A DNA stretch of 32,000 nt, from NCBI GenBank assembly GCA_022508565.1, contig JAFLUY010000002.1:1-32000 (forward strand), given 5' to 3'. The stretch comes from Erysipelotrichales bacterium (GTDB lineage: Bacteria; Bacillota_I; Bacilli_A; RF39; UBA660). The position numbers were made by a program, and so were the translations under genes. The notes below the pieces were generated by a model that was not told the DNA's origin, ran no database searches, and worked only from the letters and a program-made list of their open reading frames with translations. This document shows, piece after piece, positions 873 to 17,835 of this stretch (position 1 is its first letter; each line of letters starts with the position of its first letter).

Positions 873-940
873 AAAAGTAACATTTTTTAGTAATCAACCA
901 TAAAATATATTGTACGTTATATAACGTTTTATATAGATTT

Positions 941-967: not shown

Positions 968-995
968 TCTAAACTTAAAACCTTATTAATTATCA

Positions 996-1024: not shown

Positions 1025-1046
1025 AGCCAACAAAAAGAGGGGCTAT

Positions 1047-1751
1047 ATGAGTAGATTAACAGAAGAACAAAAATTTATATTTAAAGCAAAACTAATTGAT
1101 TTCTTGGAAGAATATTTTTATCTTTATTCGGAGGAAGAAAAGTACATGATTAATTCTTACTTCTTAGGACGCGCTTTTGAAGATAATAAACCAATTGATA
1201 TTATGGATGAAATATATCAAGAAATTGGTGTATATGATGCTGTAACAGATAATATTTATTCAGACTTTTACAATGTAATGACTAGTTATTTGAGTATTAA
1301 TCAAAGATTATTAGAAGTTGGATGTGGAATATTACCATCATTTGCCAAAATGATGGTAAAAAAACAAAGATGTGGCTCATTAATTGTAATAGATCCAAAT
1401 GTTAGACTTGAGCGTGCTTATGGCTTTGCAATGTTAAGAAGAGAATTTAATCAAGATTTTGATATTACGGATATTGATTTGCTTTATGGAATCCAAACAT
1501 GTGGCGCAACATTAGATATGATAAAACTAGCTAATGCCAAAAATAAAGATTTATGTTTACTACCATGTGCATGTAAACATTTTCCATATGATGAAGCAGG
1601 AAAGTATAAAAATGCAACTCTTGAAGATTGGTATGCATACTTAGAAAATTTAATTGAATCTACATTGCCAGAAGATAGAGAATTCATTAAAGAAACTGCT
1701 CCAAGCATTAATTACCCAATATATATAACAAGAAAATTAACAAATAAATAA
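1047..1751 (+). CDS. Hypothetical protein, possible Rossmann-fold/SAM-dependent methyltransferase-like
   Basis: 234-aa ORF with a good RBS. LLEVGCGILPSF followed by LIVIDPN resembles class I methyltransferase motif I and the acidic end of strand 2. No other family recognised. Confidence 0.6.
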   Translation: MSRLTEEQKFIFKAKLIDFLEEYFYLYSEEEKYMINSYFLGRAFEDNKPIDIMDEIYQEIGVYDAVTDNIYSDFYNVMTSYLSINQRLLEVGCGILPSFAKMMVKKQRCGSLIVIDPNVRLERAYGFAMLRREFNQDFDITDIDLLYGIQTCGATLDMIKLANAKNKDLCLLPCACKHFPYDEAGKYKNATLEDWYAYLENLIESTLPEDREFIKETAPSINYPIYITRKLTNK

Positions 1752-1757
1752 AATAAG

Positions 1758-1786
1758 TTGATTTTTTATAATCATTAGTATATAAT
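1758..1786 (+). promoter_or_regulatory. rpsO promoter
   Basis: TTGATT (1758-1763), 17-nt spacer, consensus TATAAT (1781-1786). It leaves a leader of about 80 nt before the AGGAGG RBS, which could be a possible S15 autoregulatory leader. Confidence 0.6.
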
Positions 1787-1872
1787 TAACTAGAAAGTTT
1801 TTACTTGGTTTGGAAAATCTCCGATTTCTTACTAGGTTTAAACATAAAAAATATAAATAGGAGGAATAAATC

Positions 1873-2142
1873 ATGTCTGTAACTAAAGAAAGAAAAGCTG
1901 AATTAGTTAAAGAATTTGGTAAGAGTGAAAAAGACACTGGTGCTACTGAAGTACAAATTGCTATTCTTACAGAAGAGATTAGAGATTTAACTGAGCACTT
2001 AAAAATTCATATTCACGATTATCATTCAAAAAGAGGATTAATGATGAAAGTTGGTAAGAGACGTAGTTTACTTGATTATTTAAAGAATAACGATGTTAAT
2101 TCTTATCGTACATTAATCGAAAAATTAAATATTAGAAAGTAG
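1873..2142 (+). CDS. rpsO: 30S ribosomal protein S15
   Basis: 89 aa. [50 protein letters not shown] is a canonical S15 sequence. Conserved rpsO-pnp synteny. Confidence 0.97.
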
Positions 2143-2167
2143 GCACTATTTTTATAGTGTTTTTTTC
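2143..2167 (+). terminator. rpsO terminator/attenuator hairpin upstream of pnp
   Basis: GCACTAT-tttt-ATAGTGT stem-loop followed by a T7 run, immediately after the rpsO stop. Confidence 0.7.
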
Positions 2168-2212
2168 TTTATAAAATGTTAGAATATTAATAGATAAGCG
2201 AGGAAGTATAGT

Positions 2213-4393
2213 ATGGAAAAGAAAGTGTTTGAAAGAGATTTTAGAGGAAGAAAATTAATTGTTGAACATGGTGAAGTTGCAAAACAAGCACATGGCGCTG
2301 TTGTTGTAAGATATGGAGATACAGTAGTTTTATCAACAGTTGTTGTTGGTAATAATGCAAATATATTAAGTGATTTCTTTCCTTTAATGGTTTTATATCA
2401 AGAAAAATTATATTCTGTAGGTAAAATACCTGGAGGATTTATTAAAAGAGAGGGACGTCCTACTGATGCAGCAACACTAGCCGCACGTATGATTGATAGA
2501 CCTATGCGTCCAATGTTCCCTGAAGATTTTAGAAATGAAGTACAAATTGTTAATACAGTTTTATCAGTAGATACTGATAATTCACCTGAACTAGCAGCAA
2601 TGTTTGGCTCATCTCTATGTACAAGTATTTCAAAAATACCATTTGATGGACCTATTGCTGGAGTTAAAGTTGGTCGTATAAATGGAGAATTTATAATTAA
2701 CCCGACACCAGCTGAATTAGAAATTTCTGATATTGATTTAACTGTAGCTGGTACTAAACAAGCTATCAATATGGTTGAAGCAGGAAGTAAAGAAGTATCT
2801 GAAGAAGATATGTTAGAAGCTTTAATGTTCGGTCACGAAGCAGTTAAAGAATTATGTGAATTCCAAGAAGAAATCATGGATGAAATAGGCGAAGATAAAA
2901 TGGAATATGAGCGCCTAGAGATTGAAGATGATTTAAGAAGTGCTGTTTATGATTTAGCAGCTGATGGCTTAAATAAAGCATTACGTATAAAAGAAAAAAT
3001 GGAAATGTATGCTGCAGTTGATGAAGTTAAAGAAATGGTTATCAACAAATATACAGAAGAAAACGCAGACTTAGATAAAGATGAATTAGAAGTTTTAACA
3101 ACTAAAATTAAACTTATCTTAGAATCCATTGAATATGATATTTTCCGTTCAATTACTGTTGATGAAAAAACAAGAAGTGATGGAAGAAAGATGGATGAAA
3201 TAAGACCACTTTCAACTGCTATTGATTTACTTCCAAGGACTCACGGGTCAGCATTATTTACAAGAGGAGAAACTCAAGCCTTAGCTGTAACTACTTTAGG
3301 TGCCTTAAACGAATATCAAGTATTAGATGGATTAAGCTTAGAAGCTGAAAAACATTTCATGCTACATTATAACTTCCCAGCATTCTCAGTTGGTGAAACA
3401 GGAAGATATGGTTCTCCTGGAAGAAGAGAAATCGGTCATGGGGCATTAGGTGAAAGATGTTTAAAACAAGTAATGCCAAGTGAAGAAGAGTTCCCTTATA
3501 CAGTTCGTGTAGTATCAGAAATCTTAGAATCAAATGGTTCATCATCTCAAGCAACTATTTGTGCAGGATGTATGAGTCTTATGGCAGCAGGTGTTCCAAT
3601 TAAAGCGCCAGTTGCAGGTATTGCAATGGGACTTATTACAAGTAAAGATGAATCATCTTATACAATTCTTACAGATATCCAAGGTATGGAAGATCACTTA
3701 GGTGATATGGACTTCAAAGTTGGAGGAACAAGAGAAGGTATTTGTTCACTACAAATGGATATCAAGATTAAAGGAATAACAAAAGAAATATTAAAAGAAG
3801 CTTTAGCTCAAGCTAAAAAAGCTCGTTTAGAAATATTAGATGTAATGGAAGCTCAAATTGCTAAACCTCGCGAAGAAGTTTCTGAGTATGCTCCTAAAAC
3901 ATCAATATTTAAAATTAATCCAGATAAGATTAAAGAAGTTATCGGTAAAGGTGGAGAAACTATTACAAAAATTATTCTTGAATGTTCCAATGTTAAAACA
4001 GTTCAAGATATCAATGCTGTAAAAGTTGATCTTGCAGATGATGGTACAGTTACTATTTACCATACTAATAAAGAAATAATTACTAAGACTGAAGAGATGA
4101 TTAAAGATATTGCTCGTGAAGTTGAAGACGGAGTTAAATATACTGGTAAAGTAGTTAAAGTTGAAGACTTTGGATGCTTCGTACAATTATGGCCTGGTTG
4201 TGAAGGGCTAGTACATGTTTCTCAATTAGCTCACGAAAGAGTAGATAAACCAAGTGATGTAGTTAAAGTTGGAGATGAAATAATTGTTGTAAGCCAAGGA
4301 TATGATAATCGTGGTAGATTAAATCTATCTCGTAAAGATGCATTACCAAAACCAAAGAAAAAAGAAGAAAAGGAAGAAGAAATTAATGAATAA
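2213..4393 (+). CDS. pnp: Polyribonucleotide nucleotidyltransferase (PNPase)
   Basis: 726 aa. Two RNase PH-like cores ([37 protein letters not shown]), a KH motif ([12 protein letters not shown]) and an S1 domain ([15 protein letters not shown]). Confidence 0.97.
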
Positions 4394-4616
4394 GCCAATA
4401 AAAGGACAAAAATATAGACATTTTAAAGGCAACATTATTACAATCATCGAAGTAGGTAAACATACTGAAACATTAGAAGAAGTTGTTATCTATGAACATG
4501 ATGGCGAAATTTGGGTTAGACCTATGAAAATGTTCTTATCAGAAGTTGATCATGAAAAGTATCCTGAGGTAGAACAAACATACAGATTTGAACTAATTGA
4601 AGATGAAACTGAGTAG
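4386..4616 (+). CDS. DUF1653-family small protein
   Basis: [33 protein letters not shown] matches the DUF1653 pattern (YRHFKG ... W.RP...F). ATG 4386 overlaps the pnp stop (ATGAATAA). The ORF-track start at 4338 lies inside pnp and encodes only K/R-rich junk. Confidence 0.75.
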
Positions 4617-4630
4617 TTTCATCTTTTTTT
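4602..4630 (+). terminator. Rho-independent terminator
   Basis: Perfect 9-bp stem GATGAAACT-gagt-AGTTTCATC followed by T7. The stem overlaps the stop codon of the DUF1653 gene. Confidence 0.8.
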
Positions 4631-4732
4631 GTAAAGTAGTTGTAACCACATAAAAATTGTAGAATATTTTGTAAAATTATGTTATATTAATAATAGAAAA
4701 AGGTAAAATAAAAATAGAGGAGTGATTTTTTA

Positions 4733-5749
4733 ATGAAAAAATTAATGACAATTTTGGCAGCACTTTCATTATTTGTTCCTTTTGCAAATGTTTTTGCAGC
4801 GATACAAATTACTGACTGTGCAGCAAGTCAATCATGCTTTGTATATACACCAGGAATGGAAGTAAATTTTTATAGAAGTAAGGCAGAAGCTGATTTAAAC
4901 AGCACAAATGCCGGAATTAGTACTGTTATTTTAGAAGATGGAGGAAAAGGAGAACAATACGTTAAAACTTTAGTTGTTGGTAGCCCTTATAGTTCTAGTG
5001 TAAATTATTTTGAAGACGGGGATACTGAACCTTATGAAATGGCTAAAAAAGAACATTTAAGTAATTTAAATAAAAGTCAAAATGGAGATTATTATTGGGA
5101 ATCTGCTAGACAAGATGCAGACGGAAATATTGATTTAGATTATATTTCATTAGATGAATTAATAAATGTTTTTGGTGCAACTAAAAATGAAGACGGAACT
5201 TATTCAATTGATGCAGCTAAATATGGTGATGTATTTGGAATATCTGTTGTTGCTTTAGATGCTGAGGACAGAGAAGCTATTGAAGCAGAATTAGCAGATA
5301 AAGGGATTACTTATGACCTTCAATTAAAAGCAAATAAAGGTTTCTATACTTCTACATATGATAAAGATACTAATAAAGTATGGGTTGTTGCATATGCTTT
5401 AGATAAAGATTTTCATATAACTGATATCACAGTTAAAGAAGAAAATATGAATAATAATGACTATGCTTATATACCAGTAGTGTATTTTGATAAAACTTAT
5501 GACTGTACATCAAGAGTAGCAGAAGATGTAATGGCATGTTATTCATGTGATGAAGATTATAGATGGATGAAAGTTGGATCACAAGCTGAAACTTGTACTT
5601 TAGTTGAAAATATTACTAGTCAAGGATCATGTGTTAAAGCTGTAAAAACTGGAGTAGAAAATTATATACTTGAATTTGTAGGTATTGCTCTAGTATGTGG
5701 TGTAGCATTAGCAATTGCTAAGAAAAAAGATTTATTTAGAACAATCTAA
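4733..5749 (+). CDS. Secreted/cell-surface protein with N-terminal signal peptide and C-terminal sorting-signal-like anchor
   Basis: MKKLMTILAALSLFVPFANVFA is a signal peptide. The C-terminus has the sortase-substrate architecture: VKTG, then hydrophobic ILEFVGIALVCGVALAIA, then KKKD. A Cys-rich stretch precedes it. RBS AGAGGAG. Own terminator. Confidence 0.8.
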   Translation: MKKLMTILAALSLFVPFANVFAAIQITDCAASQSCFVYTPGMEVNFYRSKAEADLNSTNAGISTVILEDGGKGEQYVKTLVVGSPYSSSVNYFEDGDTEPYEMAKKEHLSNLNKSQNGDYYWESARQDADGNIDLDYISLDELINVFGATKNEDGTYSIDAAKYGDVFGISVVALDAEDREAIEAELADKGITYDLQLKANKGFYTSTYDKDTNKVWVVAYALDKDFHITDITVKEENMNNNDYAYIPVVYFDKTYDCTSRVAEDVMACYSCDEDYRWMKVGSQAETCTLVENITSQGSCVKAVKTGVENYILEFVGIALVCGVALAIAKKKDLFRTI

Positions 5750-5751
5750 TT

Positions 5752-5778
5752 AGAACTTCGTAAAGAAGTTCTTTTTTT
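5752..5778 (+). terminator. Rho-independent terminator
   Basis: AGAACTTC-gtaaa-GAAGTTCT followed by T6. Confidence 0.8.
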
Positions 5779-5815
5779 GTATATAAGTTACTAATTTGAA
5801 TAATAATATAATAAG

Positions 5816-5824
5816 TGGTATAAT
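5816..5824 (+). promoter_or_regulatory. Extended -10 promoter element for the 5853 gene
   Basis: TGGTATAAT (TGnTATAAT) about 30 nt upstream of ATG 5853. Confidence 0.5.
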
Positions 5825-5852
5825 TAACTATGTGAAGAATAGAGGTTAATAA

Positions 5853-6590
5853 ATGATATTTAAATATAGAAAAGAATTAATTATTATATGTACTTCTGTT
5901 TTTGTGTGCATATTATTATTTGCTTGTATAAGATTTTTATATTTTAAAAATGTTAAAGTTGATGCACCTTTTGATAATGTTATGAAGTATTATAATGAAG
6001 AAGAAAATGTACCTAAATATAAGGTAGCAACAGTTAAAAAAGTTAATACAACAACAACTTCAATAATAACAACTTTATCTAATATTGAAGAAGAGGAAAC
6101 TGTTGAAGAAGTAGTAGATGAAACTACTAAAATTCCATATGAAGTTGCACCAACATTTGAAGATGACGGTTCAATTATATATGATGGTATGACTTTAACT
6201 GAACTTACGAATAAGCTAAATAGATCACTAAATGGATATTTAACAAATACAGGTTATTTCTTTGCTAAAAATACAAAAGATACAGGAATGGATCCATACT
6301 TGAGCGTTTCAATTGTTTTATTAGAAACAGGATGCAAGTGGACATGTTCATCTTTAACTACTAAATGTAATAATATAGGTGGTTTAAAAGGTGGGTCATC
6401 TTGTAATGGAGGCTCATATAGCAAATATGATACTTTAGATGAAGGAATTGCTGGATATCTAGGAATAATCTATAACAATTATTATCTAAAGGGTATGGAT
6501 ACAGCTGAAAAAATGGCTAGTACTTATGCAGCAAGTCCAGTATGGGCAAGCAAAGTAAATAATTATATTAATGAAGTTAAAAATGCTTAA
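5853..6590 (+). CDS. Membrane-anchored glucosaminidase-domain (peptidoglycan hydrolase-like) protein
   Basis: N-terminal TM helix (LIIICTSVFVCILLFACI). The C-terminal region LLETGCKW..NNIGGLKGG..YSKYDTLDEGIAGYLGIIYNNYY resembles the mannosyl-glycoprotein endo-beta-N-acetylglucosaminidase fold signature (E..G......N.fGiK...f.s..eg...y). Recognition is by motif only. Confidence 0.65.
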   Translation: MIFKYRKELIIICTSVFVCILLFACIRFLYFKNVKVDAPFDNVMKYYNEEENVPKYKVATVKKVNTTTTSIITTLSNIEEEETVEEVVDETTKIPYEVAPTFEDDGSIIYDGMTLTELTNKLNRSLNGYLTNTGYFFAKNTKDTGMDPYLSVSIVLLETGCKWTCSSLTTKCNNIGGLKGGSSCNGGSYSKYDTLDEGIAGYLGIIYNNYYLKGMDTAEKMASTYAASPVWASKVNNYINEVKNA

Positions 6591-6601
6591 TGCATTTTTT
6601 T
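6579..6601 (+). terminator. Weak AT-rich terminator
   Basis: AAAAATGC-ttaat-GCATTTTT followed by a T-rich tract. The stem is AT-rich, so this call is uncertain. Confidence 0.4.
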
Positions 6602-6609
6602 CTTTTGTG

Positions 6610-6618
6610 TGTTATAAT
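6610..6618 (+). promoter_or_regulatory. Extended -10 promoter element for the 6639 gene
   Basis: TGTTATAAT (TGnTATAAT). Confidence 0.5.
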
Positions 6619-6638
6619 TTTTATAGTAGGTGATGACA

Positions 6639-7373
6639 ATGACAGGTATATATGATAATCGCTTAGGTTTTCACGAACTCCCATTTTATGAAATAGAAGG
6701 ATTATGTGAAGAACTAGTTAGAACAGCCACATCTAAAAGTGAGAAATATAAAGAAATATTTGAAGAGTATAAAAGAAATATGTCAAGATTTTCTCCTGCT
6801 TTTGAATTTTGTATTCATGAACTAGGATGGATGTTATATGATCCGTTCTCTCTTGGAACTGATGAAGTATTATTTTCTAATGGAAAAAGATGCTTTGTTG
6901 CATCAGTTGACTATGTAAAAAAAGAAGGTTTTGATAGACATTCAATTACTAATGATACAGCTGGTTATCCAAGACTATATGACGATGTCATTGGTTATGA
7001 TCCATATATGTCAGTAGATAATATAAATGAAGGAATAGTTGATGAAAAAGGTTTTGTTTCATCAACATTCACTGATTCTATAGATATATTAGCAGAAATA
7101 GAAGTAATGTTTGATAATATTAGTGATAAAAAAGCTTATAAAGATTATCAAAAGAACAAATATGTTTATGACTCAAAGTTAGAGTATTTGACCAGTAAGA
7201 AAAATGTCATGTCTGCTAAAAAGTTAGAAGATGGAAGTGTTAGTTTAAACTTTGTTTCTGAAAATGATGGTATAGTTCAAGAATTTGTTGATTTCTTAGA
7301 ATCAGAAGGTAAACTTGCTAGCTATATACCTGTAGTTGGAAGCGAAAAAACAGATATAATGAAAGTTGCTTAA
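6639..7373 (+). CDS. Hypothetical cytoplasmic protein (no recognisable family)
   Basis: Long ORF with normal codon usage. AGGTGA RBS at 6628-6633 favours ATG 6639 over the GTG 6630 or ATG 6633 of the ORF track. Own promoter and terminator. Confidence 0.7.
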   Translation: MTGIYDNRLGFHELPFYEIEGLCEELVRTATSKSEKYKEIFEEYKRNMSRFSPAFEFCIHELGWMLYDPFSLGTDEVLFSNGKRCFVASVDYVKKEGFDRHSITNDTAGYPRLYDDVIGYDPYMSVDNINEGIVDEKGFVSSTFTDSIDILAEIEVMFDNISDKKAYKDYQKNKYVYDSKLEYLTSKKNVMSAKKLEDGSVSLNFVSENDGIVQEFVDFLESEGKLASYIPVVGSEKTDIMKVA

Positions 7374-7401
7374 GATTAGTTTTAAAAACTAATCTTTTTT
7401 G
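7373..7401 (+). terminator. Rho-independent terminator
   Basis: AGATTAGTTT-taa-AAACTAATCT palindromic hairpin followed by T6. Confidence 0.75.
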
Positions 7402-7408
7402 TTATAAT
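7400..7408 (+). promoter_or_regulatory. Extended -10 promoter element for the radical SAM operon
   Basis: TGTTATAAT directly after the terminator T-run. RBS AAGAGGAG lies upstream of ATG 7432. Confidence 0.5.
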
Positions 7409-7431
7409 TTTTTTTAAGAGGAGATTACTTT

Positions 7432-8262
7432 ATGGTTGTAAAAGAAATAGAAACAAAAAGTTATATAACTAAATCTAATTTACCGGTAAGTGATTATGTA
7501 ATTAATCCTTATGTCGGATGTCCTCATGGTTGCAAATACTGTTATGCATCATTCATGAAAAGATTTACAAATCATCCAGAACCTTGGGGAGAGTTCATTG
7601 ATGTAAAAAGATGTTCATCACCGCTTAACTTGAATCTTATTAGTAAGAGAAATGTTTTTTTATCATCAGTAACTGATTGCTATAATGAGTTTGAACGTAA
7701 ATACGAATTAACAAGATCTATTTTAAAAGAGTTAGTTAATTCAGATTGTAACTTAAGTATCGCTACTAAATCTAGTCTTATCTTAAGAGATTTAGATTTA
7801 CTTAAACAAATAAAGAATCTAGAAGTTAGTATTTCAATTAATACAATTGACGAGAATTTTAAAAATGACATGGATAATGCGAGTCCAATTAAAGATAGAC
7901 TTAATGCTTTAAAAGTCTTACATAAAAATGGTATTAAAACAATTCTCTTTATGTCTCCAATATTTCCCTATATAACAGATTTTAAAGCTATTATTGAAGC
8001 ATCAAAAAATTTTGTTGATTTATATTGGTTTGAAAATCTTAATTTAAGAGGGGCTTATAAAAAAGATATACTAGATTATATAAAAGATAAGTATCCAGAA
8101 TATTATCAAGGATACATTGATATTTACTCAAAAAACGATAATACTTACTGGGTTAATCTAGCAAGAGAAATAGATGATTATTGTATTTCTAATAATATCA
8201 ATTATCATAACTATTTTTATCATAAAAAACTAGTTGAAGAAAAGAAGAGGAATAAGTCATGA
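7432..8262 (+). CDS. Radical SAM protein, SplB/DNA-photolyase-like (COG1533-type)
   Basis: NPYVGCPHGCKYCYASF is the CxxxCxxC radical-SAM cluster motif in the context typical of the SPL-lyase-like family. Size about 276 aa. Confidence 0.8.
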   Translation: MVVKEIETKSYITKSNLPVSDYVINPYVGCPHGCKYCYASFMKRFTNHPEPWGEFIDVKRCSSPLNLNLISKRNVFLSSVTDCYNEFERKYELTRSILKELVNSDCNLSIATKSSLILRDLDLLKQIKNLEVSISINTIDENFKNDMDNASPIKDRLNALKVLHKNGIKTILFMSPIFPYITDFKAIIEASKNFVDLYWFENLNLRGAYKKDILDYIKDKYPEYYQGYIDIYSKNDNTYWVNLAREIDDYCISNNINYHNYFYHKKLVEEKKRNKS

Positions 8263-8783
8263 AAATATATTTAGTAAGACATGGAGAGGCAACTTCCAAT
8301 CTTGAGCATGTTTATAATAGGGTTGATGATGAATTAACTGAGTTAGGAATAAAACAAGCAGAAACTCTTGCCAACCTAGTTAATGCTATTGATTATGATG
8401 TAGTAATTTCTTCTCCACTAACAAGATGTATACAAACTACAAATATTATAAATACGCATAACAAAGAAGTAATACTAGATTCCAATTTAAAAGAAAGAGA
8501 TGCCGGCAATCTAATTGGAACACCACTAGAAAACTCGAATCGTGAAGAATATTGGAACTATAATACGACACTTGTACAAGGAGAGTATGAAGATATTAAA
8601 GATTTCTTTAAAAGAATAAGTAATTTCTTAGATGAATTAAAGAAAAAAGATTATAAATCGGTCTTAATTGTTTCTCACAGTGGGGTATCCAAAGCTATTA
8701 ATGCATATTTTAATGGCATAGGTGATGGTTATTTTTTAAATAAAGGGCTTTCTAATTGTGAAATAAAAGAATATGATTTATAA
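8259..8783 (+). CDS. Histidine phosphatase family protein (phosphoglycerate mutase-like)
   Basis: IYLVRHGEATSN (RHG catalytic motif), SSPLTRCIQT and a later SHSG motif. The start overlaps the upstream stop by 4 nt (ATGA). Confidence 0.85.
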   Translation: MKIYLVRHGEATSNLEHVYNRVDDELTELGIKQAETLANLVNAIDYDVVISSPLTRCIQTTNIINTHNKEVILDSNLKERDAGNLIGTPLENSNREEYWNYNTTLVQGEYEDIKDFFKRISNFLDELKKKDYKSVLIVSHSGVSKAINAYFNGIGDGYFLNKGLSNCEIKEYDL

Positions 8784-8812
8784 TACAAAGTAAGTAGGTG
8801 AGTAGTGGGTAT

Positions 8813-9223
8813 ATGAAAAAAGCATTAAAAATCGCTATAACTATTATTTTATTAATCATCTTAATTTCTTTATTACTATTTAGTACTAAAGAATATGTTG
8901 ATGAAGTAAAGGATACATTAGAAAATACTAAAGTAGTAAAACGATATAACAATAAAACCAAAGAAGTAGAAAAAGTTTATAATGAAGATGAAACAAAAGA
9001 ATTGATAAAGCAACTTGACTATTCTAAATGGACAGAAACAAAAGAATTAAATAATGATGAAGTTATCTATACATTAAAACTATATGAAGATGAAGACAGT
9101 GAAAATGACGCATCGATTGATATCGTTGTCAATTATGAATTTGTAATTGTAAAAATAAATGGCTATGAAGATAAACTATATCAAACAAACCACAACCTAA
9201 AGAGTATGTTTAAAAAAAGATAA
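8813..9223 (+). CDS. Small membrane-anchored hypothetical protein
   Basis: MKKALKIAITIILLIILISLLLFS is an N-terminal TM anchor, followed by a charged soluble domain. ATG 8813 is preferred to GTG 8798. Confidence 0.65.
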   Translation: MKKALKIAITIILLIILISLLLFSTKEYVDEVKDTLENTKVVKRYNNKTKEVEKVYNEDETKELIKQLDYSKWTETKELNNDEVIYTLKLYEDEDSENDASIDIVVNYEFVIVKINGYEDKLYQTNHNLKSMFKKR

Positions 9224-9241
9224 AAAATAAAGGAGAAAAGT

Positions 9242-10246
9242 ATGAAAGAAGTTAAAATAAAAGAAGAAAAAACTAAAAAAGAAGAAGTAATTGAAGAAAA
9301 AGTAGTTAAGGAAAAGAAAAGAATTACACCTTTATATATAATTAAATTAATTCTTTTAATAATAACTAGCCCAATTTGGTTTCCTTGGAAAGTTTTATTT
9401 GTAAGAAGACCAGGTAAAAAATTTAAAGATGTAAGTATTCCTAAGAAAATATTTAGAATCTTAAGAGCGCCAATTACAAAAACTATTAAATTTGCGTTAT
9501 TCTTATTCATAATTGCAATAGAAATATCTTTATTATATAAAGTAAGATATTCACCAGTTACTTATACAATAACTAGAAGTTCTGTTCATAATTATTATTT
9601 ACAAGGAGAAAGTAGTAAGCAACTACTAGGCCTAGTCGATAATGTTTATGCAAGCAATTTAAATTTACATTATGATGAATTTAAAGAAGCATTTGATAAT
9701 ATTGATACTTGGAGTTTAGGTACTAAAAATAAAATGTATGTTATTTTAGATGCTGATGTAACTAAAATAATGGTTAAATATATTGGCGATTCTTATGTGT
9801 CTTATATTCTAACTGAATTTAACACTAATGAATCATTTAGAAATGATATAGAGTATATAGTAAAAAACATTAATAAAATTTTAACCCGTTTCGTAAGAGA
9901 ACTTCCAGAGGCATTACCATATGAAGATTTAGATGTAATTACAAAACCACTTGCTTCTGCTGGCTCAGTTACAGTAGATTATAAAGTTGCTTTAGATGCT
10001 TTAGGTACAATAGTAAAATCTTACGAAAATGAATTTGAAGAAGATACAACTTCAGTAATCCAAAAAGACGAAAAAGAAATGATTAATTTATTTATCAAAA
10101 TGGTAGTTGACTTTGGTAAAGGAAAAACTATTGCTCAAGTTTATGAAGAAGCAACAGGTGAACCACTTGTTAGAACTTCTTCATCTAATAAAAATGCAAC
10201 AGTTGAAATAATAGGAATTGAACCGGGGATGAGCGAAATAAGATAG
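9242..10246 (+). CDS. Hypothetical membrane protein
   Basis: AAGGAG RBS. K/E-rich N-terminus, two hydrophobic helices (LYIIKLILLIITSPIWFPW and IKFALFLFIIAIEISLLY), then a soluble domain of about 230 aa from an unrecognised family. Confidence 0.7.
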   Translation: MKEVKIKEEKTKKEEVIEEKVVKEKKRITPLYIIKLILLIITSPIWFPWKVLFVRRPGKKFKDVSIPKKIFRILRAPITKTIKFALFLFIIAIEISLLYKVRYSPVTYTITRSSVHNYYLQGESSKQLLGLVDNVYASNLNLHYDEFKEAFDNIDTWSLGTKNKMYVILDADVTKIMVKYIGDSYVSYILTEFNTNESFRNDIEYIVKNINKILTRFVRELPEALPYEDLDVITKPLASAGSVTVDYKVALDALGTIVKSYENEFEEDTTSVIQKDEKEMINLFIKMVVDFGKGKTIAQVYEEATGEPLVRTSSSNKNATVEIIGIEPGMSEIR

Positions 10247-10268
10247 AGTTATAATAACTCTATTTTTA
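10244..10268 (+). terminator. Rho-independent terminator
   Basis: TAGAGTTA-taa-TAACTCTA followed by T5. The stem overlaps the stop codon. Confidence 0.65.
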
Positions 10269-10324
10269 TTGAACATCTACTTTACTTTGTTTTTTTACTA
10301 AAACAATAATATTTTCTAAAGTTA

Positions 10325-10333
10325 TGATAAAAT
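10325..10333 (+). promoter_or_regulatory. Extended -10 promoter element for the SDR gene
   Basis: TGATAAAAT (TGnTAAAAT) about 22 nt upstream of ATG 10355. Confidence 0.4.
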
Positions 10334-10354
10334 TAAATTATGTAGAGGTGTATT

Positions 10355-11089
10355 ATGGAAAGAAAAGTAGCAGTAATCACAGGCGCAAGAAGAGGTTTAG
10401 GAGCATCTATTGCTTATAGTCTTGCAAGAAGAGGTTATAATGTTGTTGTCAATGACCGTGTTTGTGAAGAAGATGTTTTAGAAGTTGTTAATAATATTAA
10501 AAACAACTATGAGGTTGATGCATTAGGGGTTATGGCTGATGTATCAGTAGAAAATGAAGTTAAAAGATTTTTACGTGTTGTACAAGAAAAGTATGGAAGA
10601 GTAGATGTTGTTGTTAACAATGCTGGAATAGTTGAAGACGTAGAACTAGAAAACAGAACTATAGATACATTCAATGAAACACTAACTAACAATGTAACTT
10701 CAGTTTATCTAATGAGTAAGTATTTTGGTTTATATATGTACCAAAATAAAAAGGGTAAAATAATAAATATTTCATCAACTAATGGTACAAAGGTATTTTC
10801 ACCAGAAAGTATCGACTATGATGCATCAAAGGTTGCAATTAATTCCTTAACTAACAATTATGCAAAGCAATTTGCCCCATATGTTTTAGTTAATGCTGTA
10901 GCACCTGGATGGATTAATACAGAAATGAATGCAGATCTACCTATAAAGTTTGTTAAAGAGGAATGTGAAAAAATCTATATTAAAAGATTTGCAGAACCAC
11001 AAGAAGTTGCAAACCTTGTTTGTTTCTTAGCAAGTGATGATTGTTCATATATTAATGGTGAAGTCATTAATATAGATGGAGGATATTAA
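10355..11089 (+). CDS. SDR-family oxidoreductase (FabG-like)
   Basis: VAVITGARRGLG (TGxxxGxG), NNAG, the catalytic YDASKVAINSL (YxxxK) and the PG motif APGWINT. Confidence 0.9.
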   Translation: MERKVAVITGARRGLGASIAYSLARRGYNVVVNDRVCEEDVLEVVNNIKNNYEVDALGVMADVSVENEVKRFLRVVQEKYGRVDVVVNNAGIVEDVELENRTIDTFNETLTNNVTSVYLMSKYFGLYMYQNKKGKIINISSTNGTKVFSPESIDYDASKVAINSLTNNYAKQFAPYVLVNAVAPGWINTEMNADLPIKFVKEECEKIYIKRFAEPQEVANLVCFLASDDCSYINGEVINIDGGY

Positions 11090-11175
11090 AATACAATCTG
11101 TAAAAAAGTTTGTATTTGTATATAATAAAGTTGGAGAAACACTTAAATTCACTTAAGCTGCCTAAATTTTTATAG

Positions 11176-11198
11176 ACTACCTAAAAGGTAGTTTTTTA
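11176..11198 (+). terminator. Rho-independent terminator
   Basis: ACTACCT-aaa-AGGTAGT followed by T5, about 87 nt after the SDR stop. Confidence 0.65.
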
Positions 11199-11356
11199 TA
11201 TTATACTTTGATTACTAACTAAAGAATATAATATTATTCTATATTATACATTTCCATTAATATCCAAATAGTTTTAATTGAATAATAATCAAAGTGCATT
11301 TATGGACAAAATGAAGCTGCCTCATTTTTATTGAAAATAAATATTTTATATGCTAG

Positions 11357-11362
11357 TATAAT
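11357..11362 (+). promoter_or_regulatory. Candidate -10 element for the ATPase/vWA cassette
   Basis: Consensus TATAAT 28 nt upstream of ATG 11390. The best -35 candidate, TTGAAA (11331-11336), has a non-ideal 20-nt spacer. RBS GGGGGA at 11378-11383. Confidence 0.4.
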
Positions 11363-11389
11363 ATTTAAGCTTTAATTGGGGGATTTTGC

Positions 11390-13243
11390 ATGAAAATAAA
11401 GAAAGTCGATATTTTAAAAGAGGCAATTCTTAAGAATAATTTGTCAAAACAAGAAGATAACAATTCTGTGATTTTTTGCTATTGTTCTGATCTTGCGCGA
11501 ATTACTGAAGTTAATTACGATGAAAAAACTAACTGTGGTGAATATTGGTTTGATGGTAATATAAATAATAGTAATAGTAATTCAAAGAAAAATAAAAATT
11601 GTATTAATTTTGTTCATTTCAATGGTGGTTTATCATATACACATAATACAAATTTAAAATCAGGTGTAAGGATTGCTATTTCTATTGATGATATAGAAGA
11701 TTTCGATATTAATGAACTTGAAAATTTGAGTGTTGAATATCCCTTAATTGCAGTGGGTGGTAGAACATCAGAAACTTTAGATAGATTATTTGAAAGCAAA
11801 AGCAAGTTAATTCTTAAAACAGGAAGACAACATGATATCGATGGAAAATTATATGACGAATATGAAGTTTTTGGAGTTAGATTTATAAAGAAGGAAAATA
11901 AAACAGATTCTAAAATTTTAAGTGATGGGACATTAACATCTAGAGATCACGATGTTTATTTAAAAATCGAAAAAATTCCATTAACTTATGATGAGGAAAA
12001 TAGAATACTATATTCTTCAATGATATTGTTTGGAACTGTTTTTGATAGCAAAGCAGTTGAATTTAAAGATAGTTATTTAAAACAATATTTAAATAGTGGA
12101 TTTTTAAAAAGTATAAATGATGAATTAAAACATGAAGAACCTAGCATATTATTTAACCAAGAACAAGTGCAAAATAATAGATATAACTTTGATTTCTCTC
12201 CTATTACTGAAGAGGAAATAATCGAAATATGTATAAACTCTAATATAGCTGTATTTTTACATGGTCAAACGGGAGTAGGTAAAACAGAAAGAATGCTAGC
12301 ATTAGATAAAAATTTAGAGTTAATTGATTTTGGATGTACTAGTTCTGATGGATTTACTGGTATAGTTGCTAAAGATTTTAATTCAAAAGAATTATTTCTA
12401 TATGAACCTTATTGGTATAAAAGTTTATGTGAAAAATGTAAATCTGAACCTGAAAAACTTCATATTTTATTCTTAGAAGAATTAACTAATGCTAAAAATG
12501 ATATTCAAAAAGTAGCTTTTGAAGTTACTTTAAATAAAACTCTTACAAACAGTGGTTTTAGATTACAACTGCCCCCAAATGCTGTTGTATGTGCGGCAGG
12601 TAATGAAGCTAGTGAATCTAAATCAGCTAATGCAATGAGTGAACCACTATTTGGTAGATTTGCGCATGTTTATATTAATACGTCTTCTGAAGATTGGTTA
12701 AAATGGGCTTTAAAAAGAAAAAAGACAGGAAAAGAGTTGTTATTTAAAGAACATGAAGATAATAAAGTAATACATCCAGCTATTTTAGATTATATTAGGG
12801 TTAATGGTGATAAAGTTTTAAGAACTCAATATACAGGTGTAACTCCAAATGCTGATCCAAGAAAGTGGTCTATGGCGTCTAAGGCTTTATATGAAAGTAA
12901 TAATCCAAATGTACTTCGTGCTTTTGTTGGTGAAGAAATAACACAACATTTTATTCAATTTTGCAAAATGAATTTAATTACTGTTGATGATGTTATAAAT
13001 AATAGATGTTCTCTAGAAAATATCTCAGCTGATCCTTCAGTAAGATGGCATGCTGTTATATGTTTAAGTACTGTTGATGATGAGAATGTAGATAAAGTTA
13101 GAGAATTTGTTAAGAGTTTTGGCCCAGAACTTTTAGCTGTATTTGATTATGAATGGTCAAAAGATAATCCAGAAAGAATTATGAAACTATATACAAGTTA
13201 TGAAAGACCAGCAGTTAAAGGATTGACATTAAATGGATCTTAA
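11390..13243 (+). CDS. AAA+ ATPase of the MoxR/AAA_5 class with an N-terminal domain of about 280 aa and unknown function
   Basis: Walker A GQTGVGKT (residues 292-299, nt 12263-12286). Walker B ILFLEE followed by LTNA (compare LFLDEINRA). AAGNE (compare ATMNP) and PLFGRFAHVYI (compare ALLSRF) are AAA_5-like. Residues 1-280 have no family I can name with confidence. Confidence 0.8.
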   Translation: MKIKKVDILKEAILKNNLSKQEDNNSVIFCYCSDLARITEVNYDEKTNCGEYWFDGNINNSNSNSKKNKNCINFVHFNGGLSYTHNTNLKSGVRIAISIDDIEDFDINELENLSVEYPLIAVGGRTSETLDRLFESKSKLILKTGRQHDIDGKLYDEYEVFGVRFIKKENKTDSKILSDGTLTSRDHDVYLKIEKIPLTYDEENRILYSSMILFGTVFDSKAVEFKDSYLKQYLNSGFLKSINDELKHEEPSILFNQEQVQNNRYNFDFSPITEEEIIEICINSNIAVFLHGQTGVGKTERMLALDKNLELIDFGCTSSDGFTGIVAKDFNSKELFLYEPYWYKSLCEKCKSEPEKLHILFLEELTNAKNDIQKVAFEVTLNKTLTNSGFRLQLPPNAVVCAAGNEASESKSANAMSEPLFGRFAHVYINTSSEDWLKWALKRKKTGKELLFKEHEDNKVIHPAILDYIRVNGDKVLRTQYTGVTPNADPRKWSMASKALYESNNPNVLRAFVGEEITQHFIQFCKMNLITVDDVINNRCSLENISADPSVRWHAVICLSTVDDENVDKVREFVKSFGPELLAVFDYEWSKDNPERIMKLYTSYERPAVKGLTLNGS

Positions 13244-14411
13244 TAAAATTATAAGAAATCTTTTGATGAGATTTCCATTATTTGGTAATGTAATTGCTAA
13301 TTTAGAATTTATTTATACGACAAAAGCTGTTAATGCTCCAGCTTTTACTGATGGTAGCCGTGTTTATTACAAACAGGAATTTATTGATAACTATAGTGAT
13401 GCCGAAAGAGAATTTATCATTGCACATGAAATATTACATATAGTTTTTTCTCATGTATTTAGAAATACTGGACGTGATCAAGATTTATTAAACTATGTAG
13501 CTGATGCAATAATTAATAAAATATTAGTTAATGCGGGTATGACTATGCCTGAAGGTTTAGTTTATATAGAAGATGCTTTAGATTACTCAGTTGATGAATT
13601 ATATTTGAAATATTTACCTAAAATAGTTGAAATAAAAAAATTGATGGATCAAATAACTTATCATATTGATTTATCAGAACTAGATGAATTAATAGAGCAA
13701 ATGTATAAAAATGATTTAAATGAATTAATGGATGAAAATGAAAGCATTAAAAGAACGATGTTAGGTGATTTTGAGAATGATCTTCAAAAGAAAGCTTTTG
13801 CTGGAACAGCATCTTTGGGATTTGAATTTCCAAGTGTAAATGTGGGTAGGAGTGATGCATTACTTTCTTGGAGAGACTTATTATGTGCTTGTATAGTAAC
13901 TCCTGATGCTTCGACTGTTAGTTTTTATGAAATTGAAATGGATGGAATAATTAGAAAAGAGTATAAATCCGATGAATCTAATGCTGAAAGCGAAGTAATT
14001 ATTGATACTAGTTCATCTATGCCAATGAAAAAAATAAAAGTTATTTTAAGAGAATGCAAAAATATTTTGCAAACAAGCGATTTAAAAGTTGGTTTTTGCG
14101 ATGTTGAATTTTATGGTTGGAATGATATAAAAACTGAAGAAGATATTGATAACTTAAAAATTACTGGGCGTGGAGGCACAAACTTTTATGTGATGGCAAA
14201 AAGTTTTTCAAGTACTGCATTAAATAGAATAGTTATTACGGATGGTGGAGGAGCATATCCTCTTAATTATCCTGGTGTCTTATGGATAATCCTTAATACA
14301 CATATACCTACACCACCACCAGAAGGAATAGATTATATTTTTATTAATGAAAATGATATATCAGCACCTAATAATTCAAAAGAACTTGTATTAAATGGAA
14401 TAAAAAAATAA
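13233..14411 (+). CDS. Zincin metallopeptidase-vWA fusion protein (DUF2201_N plus DUF2201/VWA-like architecture)
   Basis: HEILH (HExxH, residues 65-69, nt 13425-13439) in the context RFPLFG..APAFTDG..EFIIAHEILHIVFSH. C-terminal vWA with MIDAS-like DTSSS (residues 258-262, nt 14004-14018), GRGGTNF and IVITDGGG. The start overlaps the ATPase stop by 11 nt. Confidence 0.8.
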   Translation: MDLNKIIRNLLMRFPLFGNVIANLEFIYTTKAVNAPAFTDGSRVYYKQEFIDNYSDAEREFIIAHEILHIVFSHVFRNTGRDQDLLNYVADAIINKILVNAGMTMPEGLVYIEDALDYSVDELYLKYLPKIVEIKKLMDQITYHIDLSELDELIEQMYKNDLNELMDENESIKRTMLGDFENDLQKKAFAGTASLGFEFPSVNVGRSDALLSWRDLLCACIVTPDASTVSFYEIEMDGIIRKEYKSDESNAESEVIIDTSSSMPMKKIKVILRECKNILQTSDLKVGFCDVEFYGWNDIKTEEDIDNLKITGRGGTNFYVMAKSFSSTALNRIVITDGGGAYPLNYPGVLWIILNTHIPTPPPEGIDYIFINENDISAPNNSKELVLNGIKK

Positions 14412-14440
14412 AAACAACTTTAGTAGTTGTTTTTTTTACA
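14412..14440. terminator. Bidirectional terminator between convergent genes
   Basis: AAAAACAACT-ttag-TAGTTGTTTTTTT: an AACAACT/AGTTGTT stem flanked by an A-run and a T-run. It sits between the stop codons at 14411 (+) and 14436 (-). Confidence 0.7.
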
Positions 14441-15374
14441 AAATATCTTCATCAAAACCTAATTTAGTTTTTGCAACATATATAGGTCTTCTTTTTATTT
14501 CTAAATATGATTTGGCTATATATTCACCAATTATTCCTAAGACAATTAATTGAATGCCTCCTAGGATAAGTATTACACACATAATTGATGCATATCCAGG
14601 AATATCTTTTCCAGATATAATAGTTTGTAATAGTATCTCCATAAAATACAAGAAAGATATAAATGATATTATACTTCCAAGAATAGTAGCTATTTTTAAA
14701 GGTTTAGTTGAAAAACTAAATAAACCATCTTTAGCGTAATTAAATTGTTTTTTTAATTTGAATTTTGAAACACCTGAATGTCTTTTATCAGCTGCATATG
14801 TCATGTAGAAAGTATTAAATCCAACCCATGCAAATAATCCTTTTGAGAAACGATTTGACTCTTCTAGAGATATTAATGCATCAACAACGCATTCGCGCAT
14901 TAATCTAAAATCAGATGCACCAGCAATTGTTTTTTGACCACTTGCTTTGCTCATTACTTTATAAAATGCTTTCTTTAAGAATCTTTGACTTCTTTTTTCT
15001 TTAGAATAATCGTTAACCATTGCAACTTCGTCATAACTAGGATTATCTTCTAAGAACTTTAACATATCAACTATATATTTAGGATTTTGTTGTAAGTCAG
15101 CATCAATTATACAAGTGTATTCAGCATGTGATGCCTTTAAACCTGCAAACATAGCTGCTTCTTTTCCAAAGTTACGTGAAAAACCAATAACTTTAATATT
15201 TTGTTTGTTCTTATTATATATTTTTGTTAGCTTATCTAATGACTTATCAATAGAACCATCATCTACAAATATTAAAGTATATTTAATTCCCTTCAAAGAT
15301 TTAGTTAAAGCATCATATAAAGGAATAATATTATTTTCTTCATTATATAGAGGAATAACTACATTAAGCTTCAT
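14436..15374 (-). CDS. GT2-family glycosyltransferase, polyprenol-phosphate sugar transferase type (GtrB/CsbB-like)
   Basis: MKLNVVIPLYNEENNI, FVDDGSID and IIDADLQ (DxD) are GT-A motifs. Two C-terminal TM helices are typical of GtrB/DPM1-like enzymes. ATG 15374 with an AGGTGA RBS (15379-15384) is preferred to the TTG at 15422. Confidence 0.88.
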   Translation of the reverse strand: MKLNVVIPLYNEENNIIPLYDALTKSLKGIKYTLIFVDDGSIDKSLDKLTKIYNKNKQNIKVIGFSRNFGKEAAMFAGLKASHAEYTCIIDADLQQNPKYIVDMLKFLEDNPSYDEVAMVNDYSKEKRSQRFLKKAFYKVMSKASGQKTIAGASDFRLMRECVVDALISLEESNRFSKGLFAWVGFNTFYMTYAADKRHSGVSKFKLKKQFNYAKDGLFSFSTKPLKIATILGSIISFISFLYFMEILLQTIISGKDIPGYASIMCVILILGGIQLIVLGIIGEYIAKSYLEIKRRPIYVAKTKLGFDEDIL

Positions 15375-15390
15375 AATATCACCTAGATAT

Positions 15391-15399
15391 ATTATACCA
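15391..15399 (-). promoter_or_regulatory. Possible extended -10 promoter for the GT2 gene
   Basis: The reverse complement reads TGGTATAAT. It would give a very short leader, with the TSS near the RBS, so this call is uncertain. Confidence 0.35.
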
Positions 15400-15500
15400 T
15401 AAATAGGTTGTTTAGCTATCAATTTAAAATATAAATATGCTTTACAAAGACTTTATTTTTTATTGTCGAAAAATTTTTTCGTAAAAATGGAAAAAATTAC

Positions 15501-16942: not shown

Positions 16943-17566
16943 ATGACAAAAGTAAACGTTATTGATTTAAAAGGATCAAAAGTAAAAGATATAAATATTA
17001 ATGATGAAATTTGGAATATTGAAGGTAACGACATTGTTTTAAAGAAAGCTATTAAATTACAAATGGATTCTTTAAGACAAGGAAGTGCTAAAGTTAAAGA
17101 CCGTTCAGAAGTATCTGGTGGTGGAAGAAAACCATACAGACAAAAAGGAACTGGTAATGCAAGACAAGGATCAATCCGTGCACCACATTATAGAGGTGGT
17201 GGAGTAGTATTCGGTCCAACACAAAGAAGTTATTCATTCAAAATGAATAGAAAAGAAAGAAGATTAGCATTAAAAACTGCTATCTCTGAAAAACTTGCAG
17301 AAAAGAAATTAGTAGTTATTGATTCATTAGAATTAGCAAGTACTAAAACTAAAGATGCTATTAAGATGTTAGAAACATTAAAATTAGAAGGAAAAGTATT
17401 ATTTATCTCATGTCATGATGCTGAAAAATTATATTTAGCTACTAGAAACTTAAATAATGTTGCAGTTATTATGGCTGATGAAATAAATGTTTATGATCTT
17501 GTAAATGCAGACGTAGTTGTTTGTGATGAAGATACAGTAAACTATATAGAGGAGGCGCTTAAATAA
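16943..17566 (+). CDS. rplD: 50S ribosomal protein L4
   Basis: SGGGRKPYRQKGTGNARQGSIRAPHYRGGGVVFGP. Confidence 0.98.
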   Translation: MTKVNVIDLKGSKVKDININDEIWNIEGNDIVLKKAIKLQMDSLRQGSAKVKDRSEVSGGGRKPYRQKGTGNARQGSIRAPHYRGGGVVFGPTQRSYSFKMNRKERRLALKTAISEKLAEKKLVVIDSLELASTKTKDAIKMLETLKLEGKVLFISCHDAEKLYLATRNLNNVAVIMADEINVYDLVNADVVVCDEDTVNYIEEALK

Positions 17567-17835
17567 TGAAAGATATAATTATTGCTCCAGTAATTACTGA
17601 AAAAGCTGCCAATATTAATGCAGATGGAACAACATATGTTTTTAAAGTAAGTAAAAGTGCAAACAAAACTCAAATTGCTGATGCAATTGAAAGCGCTTTC
17701 AATGTTAAAGTTAAAAATATCAGAACTCTTAATACAAAAGCTAAAGATAAAAGAGTTGGAAGATATACAGGAAAAACAAAAACTTATAAGAAAGCTATCG
17801 TTACTTTAGCTGACGGTTACGCTATAGAAATATAG
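17566..17835 (+). CDS. rplW: 50S ribosomal protein L23
   Basis: IIIAPVITEKA..YVFKVSKSANKTQI..KKAIVTL, in the expected operon position. TAATG overlap with rplD. Confidence 0.97.
   Translation: MKDIIIAPVITEKAANINADGTTYVFKVSKSANKTQIADAIESAFNVKVKNIRTLNTKAKDKRVGRYTGKTKTYKKAIVTLADGYAIEI

Follow-up and report, generated by a model that had tools for sequence, protein, structure and literature searches.

The stretch considered here, referred to below as the window, is the first 32,000 nt of contig JAFLUY010000002.1 (assembly GCA_022508565.1) from an Erysipelotrichales bacterium, and all coordinates of its cassette are positions in this whole stretch (Table 1). Between an SDR gene and a GT2 gene, with the S10 ribosomal protein operon beyond, the window carries a cassette of two genes on the + strand: gene 1 encodes a fusion of a presumed sensor domain to an AAA+ ATPase, and gene 2 encodes a protein that joins a zincin-type metallopeptidase domain to a von Willebrand factor A (vWA) domain. 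The gene 1 protein is identical to J1F35_01465, a protein from an Erysipelotrichales metagenome-assembled genome (MAG). The two open reading frames (ORFs) share 11 nt, the ATG of gene 2 sitting inside ATGGATCTTAA, and 300 nt of non-coding DNA precedes gene 1; this arrangement, and the SDR, GT2 and S10 neighbours, are as a first-pass annotation of the window had described them, and the genes are probably co-translated as a self-contained pair. No hydrophobic segment was found in either product (maximum KD(19) of 1.03 for gene 1 and 1.24 for gene 2), so both should be soluble and cytoplasmic.

The N-terminal domain of gene 1 had been called an orphan in the first-pass annotation, which proved wrong: profile comparison places it in a large DUF6273-related family. 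Searching with a profile of the domain retrieved 3,664 representatives at 50% clustering (E ≤ 1e-3), 875 of them at E ≤ 1e-30, and the best 150 of the 3,664 were mostly stand-alone proteins of ~270-360 aa, together with some tandem duplications and some fusions. The Pfam DUF6273 profile itself (gathering score 23.5 bits) gave no match for the gene 1 protein of the window; it matched four of 30 ATPase homologues (best E 1.5e-4) and five of 70 wider relatives (best E 2.1e-7), and two proteins, P0103 and P0105, reached 19.5 bits, with residues 51-95 aligned to positions 117-168 of the 172 in the profile. DUF6273 has been described as a C-lectin-like binding domain that is diversified by diversity-generating retroelements (DGRs) in receptor-binding proteins of gut phages (PMC10743442; also one preprint), and it occurs at the N-terminus of the gut IgA protease ThomasA (PMC12402451). 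In an alignment of 30 homologues the gene 1 domain is conserved family-wide, with the motifs SDLARL, GVRP, YGEYPQ and VEPIxW, and its AlphaFold2 model is confident (pLDDT 88.8, pTM 0.87), apart from an Asn/Lys-rich loop at residues ~57-70 for which the model confidence is low. We presume that the domain is a ligand-binding sensor module. Many proteins of the family show two matched stretches, and longer ATPase paralogues, with about 270 additional residues, occur at two of the loci described below (910, 906 and 938 aa at L063; 901 aa at L070); both observations suggest tandem sensor modules.

Behind this domain lies the AAA+ core, which matches Pfam AAA_5 over residues 288-424 with a marginal score (E 2.8e-5; 24.6 bits, the cut-off being 22). 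The same profile matches 19 of 30 homologues of gene 1, and weak Sigma54_activat matches are present in 22 of the 30. Residues G292, G297 and K298 of Walker A, E364 of Walker B, N405 of sensor-1 and R423 are invariant across 30 homologues, down to 33% identity. Gene 2 matches both halves of the DUF2201 architecture, DUF2201_N strongly (E 1e-20, 74.9 bits against a cut-off of 23.2) and the VWA-like DUF2201 domain less so (E 2.3e-6, 28.2 bits against 26.4), while Peptidase_M48 matches its N-terminal domain (E 1.8e-6). All three profile searches that had been suggested beforehand (AAA_5, DUF2201_N and DUF2201) thus pass their cut-offs, that for AAA_5 only marginally. H65 and H69 of the zinc motif are invariant and E66 is at least 90% conserved among 25 homologues of gene 2, in all of which the metal ion-dependent adhesion site (MIDAS) residues D258-x-S260-x-S262, T316 and D337 are also invariant; the earlier reading of the catalytic motifs as intact was therefore confirmed in both proteins.

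The AlphaFold2 model of gene 2 (pLDDT 72) splits into a selecase-like N-terminal domain and a C-terminal domain with a vWA fold. A profile of the gene 2 family identified selecase MJ1213 in the PDB (E 2.6e-4), and Foldseek matched the modelled peptidase domain to 4qhj/4qhf with a probability of 0.99 and a template modelling (TM) score of about 0.5 on the target. MJ1213 is thus the closest solved relative of this domain, with which it has in common the HExxH motif and a downstream His; selecase is, however, a stand-alone archaeal enzyme of 110 aa, whereas the gene 2 domain is joined by a helical linker to the vWA domain and is coupled to an ATPase. The vWA domain model matched CLCA1, BatB, NorD in the NorQD complex and the MDN1 MIDAS domain. 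From its motifs and its modelled resemblance to selecase, gene 2 would be an active peptidase.

The cassette is an accessory insertion at this locus. Empty sites were traced via homologues of the GT2 protein that are 76-83% identical to it, and via their contigs (L122, L123 and L124); this route replaced a metagenome scan with GT2, which had yielded only relatives of 37% identity or less. GT2 and the gene at the SDR position are immediate neighbours in each of the three contigs, only 17-31 nt apart, and the cassette is lacking. The gene at the SDR position is an SDR in L122 and an unannotated gene of 244-250 aa in L123 and L124, and the S10 operon follows beyond GT2 in the two of the three contigs that are long enough. 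L122, the closest relative, in which the outer genes also follow the gene order of the window, defines the edges of the insertion: its DNA aligns with the window up to position 11125 and again from position 14410, and each end of the insert can be aligned with the 37-nt terminator hairpin that L122 has between the two genes. We infer from these alignment breaks an insert at ~11126-14409 (3.3 kb) between two diverged copies of the target hairpin. The insert holds only two genes, with no integrase or transposase among them, and its GC content of 25-30% is the same as that of the flanks, so that it shows no compositional anomaly. Horizontal acquisition is the reading that we favour. In other genomes the pair has unrelated chromosomal neighbours, and at one locus (L003) the pair lies among a Mob_Pre relaxase, helix-turn-helix regulators and a serine recombinase, members of whose relaxase and recombinase clusters are also carried by a second locus (L028); in some genomes the pair is carried by a mobile element.

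Among the GTDB species representatives, 397 stretches that encode relatives were detected, and the best 80 of these come nearly all from gut MAGs (Bacilli, Tenericutes, Mollicutes, Anaeroplasmataceae and Coprobacillus). All ORFs from 87 loci were clustered for the neighbourhood analysis. Three families recur and no other: the ATPase (87 loci), the DUF2201 partner (76) and a protein of ~133 aa, here called s133 (53). Many of the 11 loci that have no vWA partner are short or end just past the ATPase gene, and we regard the coupling of the two genes as strict. The window belongs to a two-gene clade, whose members are at least about 50% identical to the window protein and combine an ATPase of ~615 aa with a vWA protein of ~400 aa. 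A sister clade, at ~35% identity, places s133 between the ATPase and vWA genes (for example L010 9926-10327 and L013 4295-4687, plus 51 other loci). By profile alignment s133 is a degenerate AAA+ core that has neither Walker A nor the acidic residues of Walker B (hhalign probability 95%, E 3.5e-8); possible roles for it are those of an adaptor or of an inactive subunit in the ring, and it is missing from the clade of the window. Genes of conflict systems lie within 10 kb of the pair at L013 (AAA_21 with RloB, and MazE/PemK; 190-2048 and 17036-17628) and at L007 (Fic/RhuM; 13526-14464).

The first-pass annotation had proposed a variable, sensor-like N-terminus, and this was upheld in two ways in the relatives of the cassette. 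The first is its targeting by DGRs. At 14 three-gene loci of the sister clade a reverse transcriptase (RT) of ~348 aa is encoded directly upstream of the ATPase (RVT_1 E 9e-17, with LGNxxSQ and YMDD motifs), and at 11 of these 14 the RT gene is preceded by a gene for a ~197-aa protein that is weakly similar to bAvd (E 0.0096). Six loci have, between Avd and RT, a 74-nt repeat with a matching segment 215-230 nt inside the ATPase gene. The edges of this template repeat (TR) and of the corresponding variable repeat (VR) are conserved and GC-rich (GCGCGCGTCGTT ... GGTGGCGCTCGCCCAG), and each of the six TR/VR pairs contains 10-13 mismatches, all of them at TR adenines and none at VR adenines. Mismatches restricted to TR adenines are the signature of mutagenic retrohoming by a DGR. 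An alignment tolerant of substitutions at A added further pairs, clear at L042 and L091 and probable at L037 and L058. The VR encodes ATPase residues ~72-101 ('DARVV...GGARPA'; 72-97 in L092 and 76-101 in L061), which is the part of the domain that matches the VR-bearing end of DUF6273. N-terminal VRs are rare, being known from three DGRs in the survey of Wu et al. (2018).

Two further observations concern the ATPase genes of these loci. At L037, L039, L069, L083 and L091 the first ~75-110 codons are called as a short ORF of their own, placed between the RT and ATPase genes and ending near the VR, which might come from faulty assembly of a hypervariable region or from a stop codon that mutagenesis introduced. 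At L040 (~7800-8250) the ATPase gene has both VR edge motifs and no RT is encoded within 8 kb on either side; this ATPase may be a remote DGR target.

The second line of evidence comes from paralogues, in which the pattern recurs with no DGR involved. Many loci have two or three tandem ATPase genes around a single vWA gene, and at 12 of 14 such loci the paralogues are 96-100% identical in the AAA core and mostly 85-100% identical in the C-terminal region, with identities of 29-89% in the N-terminal domain and 18-94% in the segment equivalent to the VR. The pattern is extreme at L053 and L062, where the AAA core and C-terminal region are each 100% identical and the N-terminal domain and VR-equivalent segment fall to 48% and 29% (L053) and to 31% and 26% (L062). 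Uniformity is lower at L051 and L059, where the paralogues are 90-92% identical in the AAA core and 49-77% in the C-terminal region; the tandem ATPases of L009 combine the two clades. The same gradient is seen across each clade, the VR-equivalent segment being the least conserved part of the ATPase: in the two-gene clade the mean pairwise identity is 82.5% for the AAA core, 64.6% for the C-terminal region, 45.1% for the N-terminal domain and 38.1% for the VR-equivalent segment. A constant motor with a diversified N-terminal module is the pattern expected of a specificity determinant, and it is probable that the targets recognised by the family change, as those of phage would.

Taken at roughly even chances, our interpretation is that the cassette is a cytoplasmic conflict module of immune-like character, in which a sensor, an ATPase and a protease are combined as a variant of the MoxR-vWA systems. 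The N-terminal domain would serve as the specificity module and bind a macromolecule inside the cell, for which a protein from a phage or another mobile element is the most plausible candidate. Binding of the ligand would change how active the AAA+ ring made by the rest of gene 1 is, or how it assembles, and the ATPase would then engage the MIDAS face of the gene 2 vWA domain and remodel it, as in other MoxR-vWA pairs. The selecase-like zinc peptidase would be released or aimed by this step, and might cut either the bound invader protein or a host target, the latter leading to abortive infection. A broader proposal, which we advance tentatively, is that the family represents an undescribed class of immune-like receptor in gut Bacilli: a hypervariable C-lectin-like module, diversified by a DGR through a rare N-terminal VR or by paralogue swapping, would be mounted on a MoxR-type motor that controls a vWA-tethered zinc protease, with the window cassette as a mobile version of fixed specificity.

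Close parallels are the conflict systems described by Kaur et al. 2020 (PMC7159879) and Dore et al. 2024 (PMC10907252), which likewise combine a MoxR-type ATPase with a vWA protein and with a peptidase as probable effector or signalling step, have a DGR and a C-lectin-type sensor in a subset of cases, and are proposed to proceed from sensing through ATP-dependent remodelling to the release of an effector. In one set of these, DGR-diversified C-lectin sensors are coupled to MoxR-vWA-VMAP systems (PMC10907252), and a 2026 preprint gives experimental support from Actinobacteria for a MoxR-vWA pathway that relays threat signals from variable sensors (PMC13622651). The comparison with such systems made in the first-pass annotation stands as regards the MoxR-vWA pairing and is imprecise as regards the third component: the Kaur systems are ternary, their third protein being VMAP, iSTAND, FtsH or beta-propeller-vWA, whereas the insert encodes none and none recurs in the 87 loci, and a ternary system of that type was rejected for this reason. 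The two also differ in arrangement. Kaur-type effectors are C-terminal to the vWA domain, and in the cassette the zincin is N-terminal to it and is the only other domain of gene 2; the variable C-lectin of the Kaur and Dore systems resides on the vWA protein or on a separate target and has a C-terminal VR, while in the present family it is the ATPase that carries the variable domain, at its N-terminus, and the VR too is N-terminal. Whereas those systems are enriched in multicellular bacteria, the hosts of the cassette are gut Bacilli with small genomes.

Fusions of C-lectin to AAA domains have been reported as DGR targets in candidate phyla radiation (CPR) bacteria and DPANN archaea by Paul et al. 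2017, as cited in PMC10907252, and Midasin-like 'UVR4' proteins are also DGR targets (PMC5758913). The CPR/DPANN fusions resemble the sister-clade ATPases in having a DGR-diversified domain on a Midasin/MoxR-like AAA ATPase and in coming from organisms with reduced genomes; they differ in taxonomic origin, and we found no report in the literature of a zincin-vWA partner for DGR-targeted C-lectin-AAA fusions. The likeness to the 'tentaclins' and Mtd-like proteins of gut phages (PMC10743442) and to ThomasA (PMC12402451) lies in a weak, repeated match to the VR-bearing C-terminal part of DUF6273 and a gut Firmicutes setting. A DGR targets the DUF6273 domain of tentaclins and similar proteins and the DUF6273-related domain of the sister-clade ATPases, but tentaclins and ThomasA are extracellular or virion-borne binders, while the cassette domain is cytoplasmic and fused to an ATPase.

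Several results weigh against an immune-like role for the cassette. Over the full 32 kb of the window, the ORFs scanned include no RT, and neither a TR-like repeat nor a VR edge motif is present, so that the window copy was rejected as a DGR target and is, within this range, a fixed-sequence and fixed-specificity version with neither DGR nor s133; the DGR argument is carried over from a sister clade at only ~35% identity. A Foldseek search of the PDB and BFVD with the model of the N-terminal domain gave no match (best TM-score ~0.1-0.17), so that the C-lectin fold, assigned by association, is not confirmed. The AAA_5 score is marginal and no solved relative of the ATPase was detected in the PDB by sequence or family-profile searches (profile E ≤ 1), so that the MoxR label given in the first-pass annotation is carried by the Pfam match and by the vWA partner; the defining feature of the MoxR/dynein/chelatase clade is a helix-2 insert (PMC7159879). 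Neither protein has a family or equivalog in NCBIfam or a match in PADLOC-DB v2.0.0, where gene 1 gave only a chance-level alignment (E 0.027, 26 residues) and gene 2 none, which leaves the pair outside characterised families and outside catalogued defence systems. The conflict genes near the pair are anecdotal, being seen at a few loci (L013 and L007). Finally, short homologous pairs are core genes of N4-like phages, where a host defence would make no sense.

The matches to phage protein families are strong. PHROG 1297 matches gene 1 over residues 275-591 (E 1.9e-41) and PHROG 1314 matches gene 2 (E 3.3e-39); the label of the latter, 'HNH endonuclease', was rejected as wrong for this region, since what it matches is the zincin domain and HNH features are lacking. 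Phage records with matches number 343, mainly from N4-like Schitoviridae, with the DUF2201 protein encoded one or two genes downstream of the ATPase (see PMC5735904), and Iyer et al. 2021, who noted a pair of MoxR and metallopeptidase-vWA proteins in jumbo phages, suggested that it takes part in assembling and processing the virion (PMC7824862). The DUF2201_N/DUF2201 and AAA_5 pairs of N4-like and jumbo phages are like the cassette in their HExxH motif, MIDAS and neighbouring AAA+ partner. The first-pass annotation knew of no experimentally assigned function for the peptidase-vWA branch, and we likewise found none in the literature for DUF2201-AAA_5 pairs, a search for COG3864 being also empty; its pairing with MoxR, on the other hand, had already been noted in those phages. 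On this basis the pair could serve a phage or mobile element, as a virion-assembly chaperone-protease or in counter-defence or exclusion, with the window copy as a remnant or moron, and it is consistent with such a role that the pair at L003 is in a mobile-element context. We consider this unlikely, although by a narrow margin the best placed of the alternatives. The insert has only two genes and the window contains no phage or integrase genes; the intact ORFs and motifs count against a decaying remnant; and the genes around most of the 87 cellular loci are varied and, where annotated, mostly of housekeeping type, with no phage or element neighbour that recurs. The phage proteins also differ in architecture: their ATPases are short (~360-375 aa) and align only to residues ~263-617 of gene 1, so that phage and generic DUF2201 pairs have no sensor domain on the ATPase, whereas in the cassette a ~260-aa DUF6273-related module is fused to it and is diversified in the cellular family. 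Viral matches begin at gene 1 residues ~247-353, with one exception. This is the only IMG/VR contig to encode the full-length form with the sensor domain (L125; IMGVR_UViG_3300006217_003178), in which a DGR, the ATPase, s133 and the vWA protein (1-11490) come just after prophage-like genes for a tail fibre, BspA-LRR, holin and M23 lysin, a setting that would speak for service to the element if the set belongs to the prophage. The Avd gene of L125 is split into two ORFs.

A second alternative, which we also regard as improbable, is that the pair is a dedicated chaperone or maturation system comparable to RavA-ViaA, NorQ-NorD, CbbQ-CbbO and CoxD-CoxE, which remodels or processes one client and for which the N-terminal domain acts as client adaptor. 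For most of the MoxR-vWA pairs studied so far this is the established role (reviewed in PMC7159879); the resemblance of the gene 2 vWA model to NorD and to the MDN1 MIDAS domain, and the conservation of every catalytic motif, would suit it. No client gene beside the pair is conserved over the 87 loci, however, and this lack of fixed synteny, which the first-pass annotation had named as the observation that would separate the pair from a plain housekeeping chaperone, is joined by the absence of the cassette from the same locus in close relatives and by the presence of some copies on mobilisable elements. DGR hypermutation and paralogue swapping of the putative adaptor, with a constant motor, are also hard to fit to a fixed client. 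The diversification of the N-terminal domain bears equally on the least probable alternative, that this domain senses a small molecule, a glycan or endogenous stress and that the pair is a regulated stress or quality-control protease: C-lectin-like and DUF6273 domains do bind varied ligands, and links between MoxR ATPases and stress responses have been described (background in PMC7159879), but hypermutation and domain turnover between paralogues indicate changing macromolecular targets, and the patchy, insertion-type distribution is unlike that of a core stress function. An immune-like sensor-ATPase-protease module remains our preferred reading of the cassette.

The leader of the cassette has signals of its own, including a promoter-like site and a ribosome-binding site (Table 1), and no conservation was found between it and the leaders of cassettes in other genomes. 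An imperfect direct repeat, AAGCTGCCTnAnTTTTTA, occurs in the leader at 11155-11172 and 11314-11331, its copies being 159 nt apart and the second lying next to the -35 element of the promoter-like site. An operator and the remnant of an attachment site are two possible explanations of it. Downstream, the hairpin between gene 2 and the convergent GT2 gene could terminate transcription both ways, in line with the bidirectional terminator predicted in the first-pass annotation.

Table 1. Features of the two-gene cassette and of its insertion site in the window
Feature	Position	Strand	Description
Left copy of ancestral SDR/GT2 intergenic terminator hairpin	11091-11125	+	Left insertion edge
Cassette leader, non-coding	11126-11389	+	Missing from the L122 empty site
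Terminator-like hairpin in leader	11174-11194
Promoter-like site	11331-11359		TTGAAA, 17 nt, TG-extended TAGTAT
Ribosome-binding site GGGGGA	11378-11383		Six nt upstream of gene 1 ATG
Gene 1	11390-13243	+	617 aa; soluble fusion of sensor domain (presumed) and AAA+ ATPase
N-terminal domain	11390-12175	+	Residues 1-262; DUF6273-related, mostly beta-strand
VR-equivalent segment	11597-11680	+	Residues ~70-97, just downstream of the Asn/Lys-rich loop; not a VR here
AAA+ core	12212-12679	+	Residues 275-430; Pfam AAA_5, invariant columns, PHROG 1297
Walker A GQTGVGKT	12263-12286	+
Walker B ILFLEE	12464-12481	+
ATPase C-terminal region	12680-13240	+	Residues 431-617; invariant PNADPRKW; common to short phage ATPases
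Gene 2	13233-14411	+	392 aa; soluble zincin-vWA protein
Metallopeptidase domain (predicted)	13233-13622	+	Residues 1-130; selecase-like (minigluzincin)
HEILH zinc motif	13425-13439	+	Conserved H74 and D91 downstream
vWA domain	13905-14357	+	Residues ~225-375; full MIDAS: DTSSS at 14004-14018, T316, D337
Hairpin 3' of gene 2	14410-14434		A-run before, T-run after; -8.3 kcal/mol, z = -2.8
Right copy of ancestral intergenic hairpin	14410-14446	.	Bidirectional terminator shared with convergent GT2; right insertion edge

Some features of the neighbouring genes were also noted. The GT2 ORF (14436-15422, - strand) encodes 328 aa from a TTG start; the 120 GT2 homologues listed (~309-329 aa, mostly 312, with one fragment of 238 aa) have alignments that open at residue 17, which makes the ATG at 15374 the probable start. 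Ribosomal protein L3 (15995-16918, 307 aa) has a long, acidic C-terminal tail rich in Glu, Thr and Val, and its orthologues in L123 and L124 have 276-278 aa, the tail thus varying in length within the lineage. On the other side of the cassette, positions 8798-10246 encode hypothetical proteins of 141 and 334 aa with a hydrophobic N-terminal segment and Lys/Glu-rich stretches; neither has a Pfam match above cut-off, and L122 has ORFs of 135 and 334 aa in their place.

If the proposed role is correct, DUF2201 zincin-vWA and AAA_5 pairs, which occur widely in bacteria and belong to the core gene set of N4-like phages, would acquire a testable function. The cassette itself, being small (3.3 kb, two genes), self-contained and portable, is practical for heterologous tests. 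The diversification of cytoplasmic sensors by DGRs, so far described mainly in multicellular bacteria and in CPR/DPANN, would extend to abundant uncultured gut Bacilli. Specificity in such a system would be modular: recognition domains that can be exchanged or hypermutated would all work with one constant ATPase-protease machine. The main interest of the family lies in the sister clade, which presents the N-terminal domain of the ATPase as a programmable recognition module; under the broader, tentative proposal above, bacteria with reduced genomes would couple antigen-receptor-like recognition to proteolysis.

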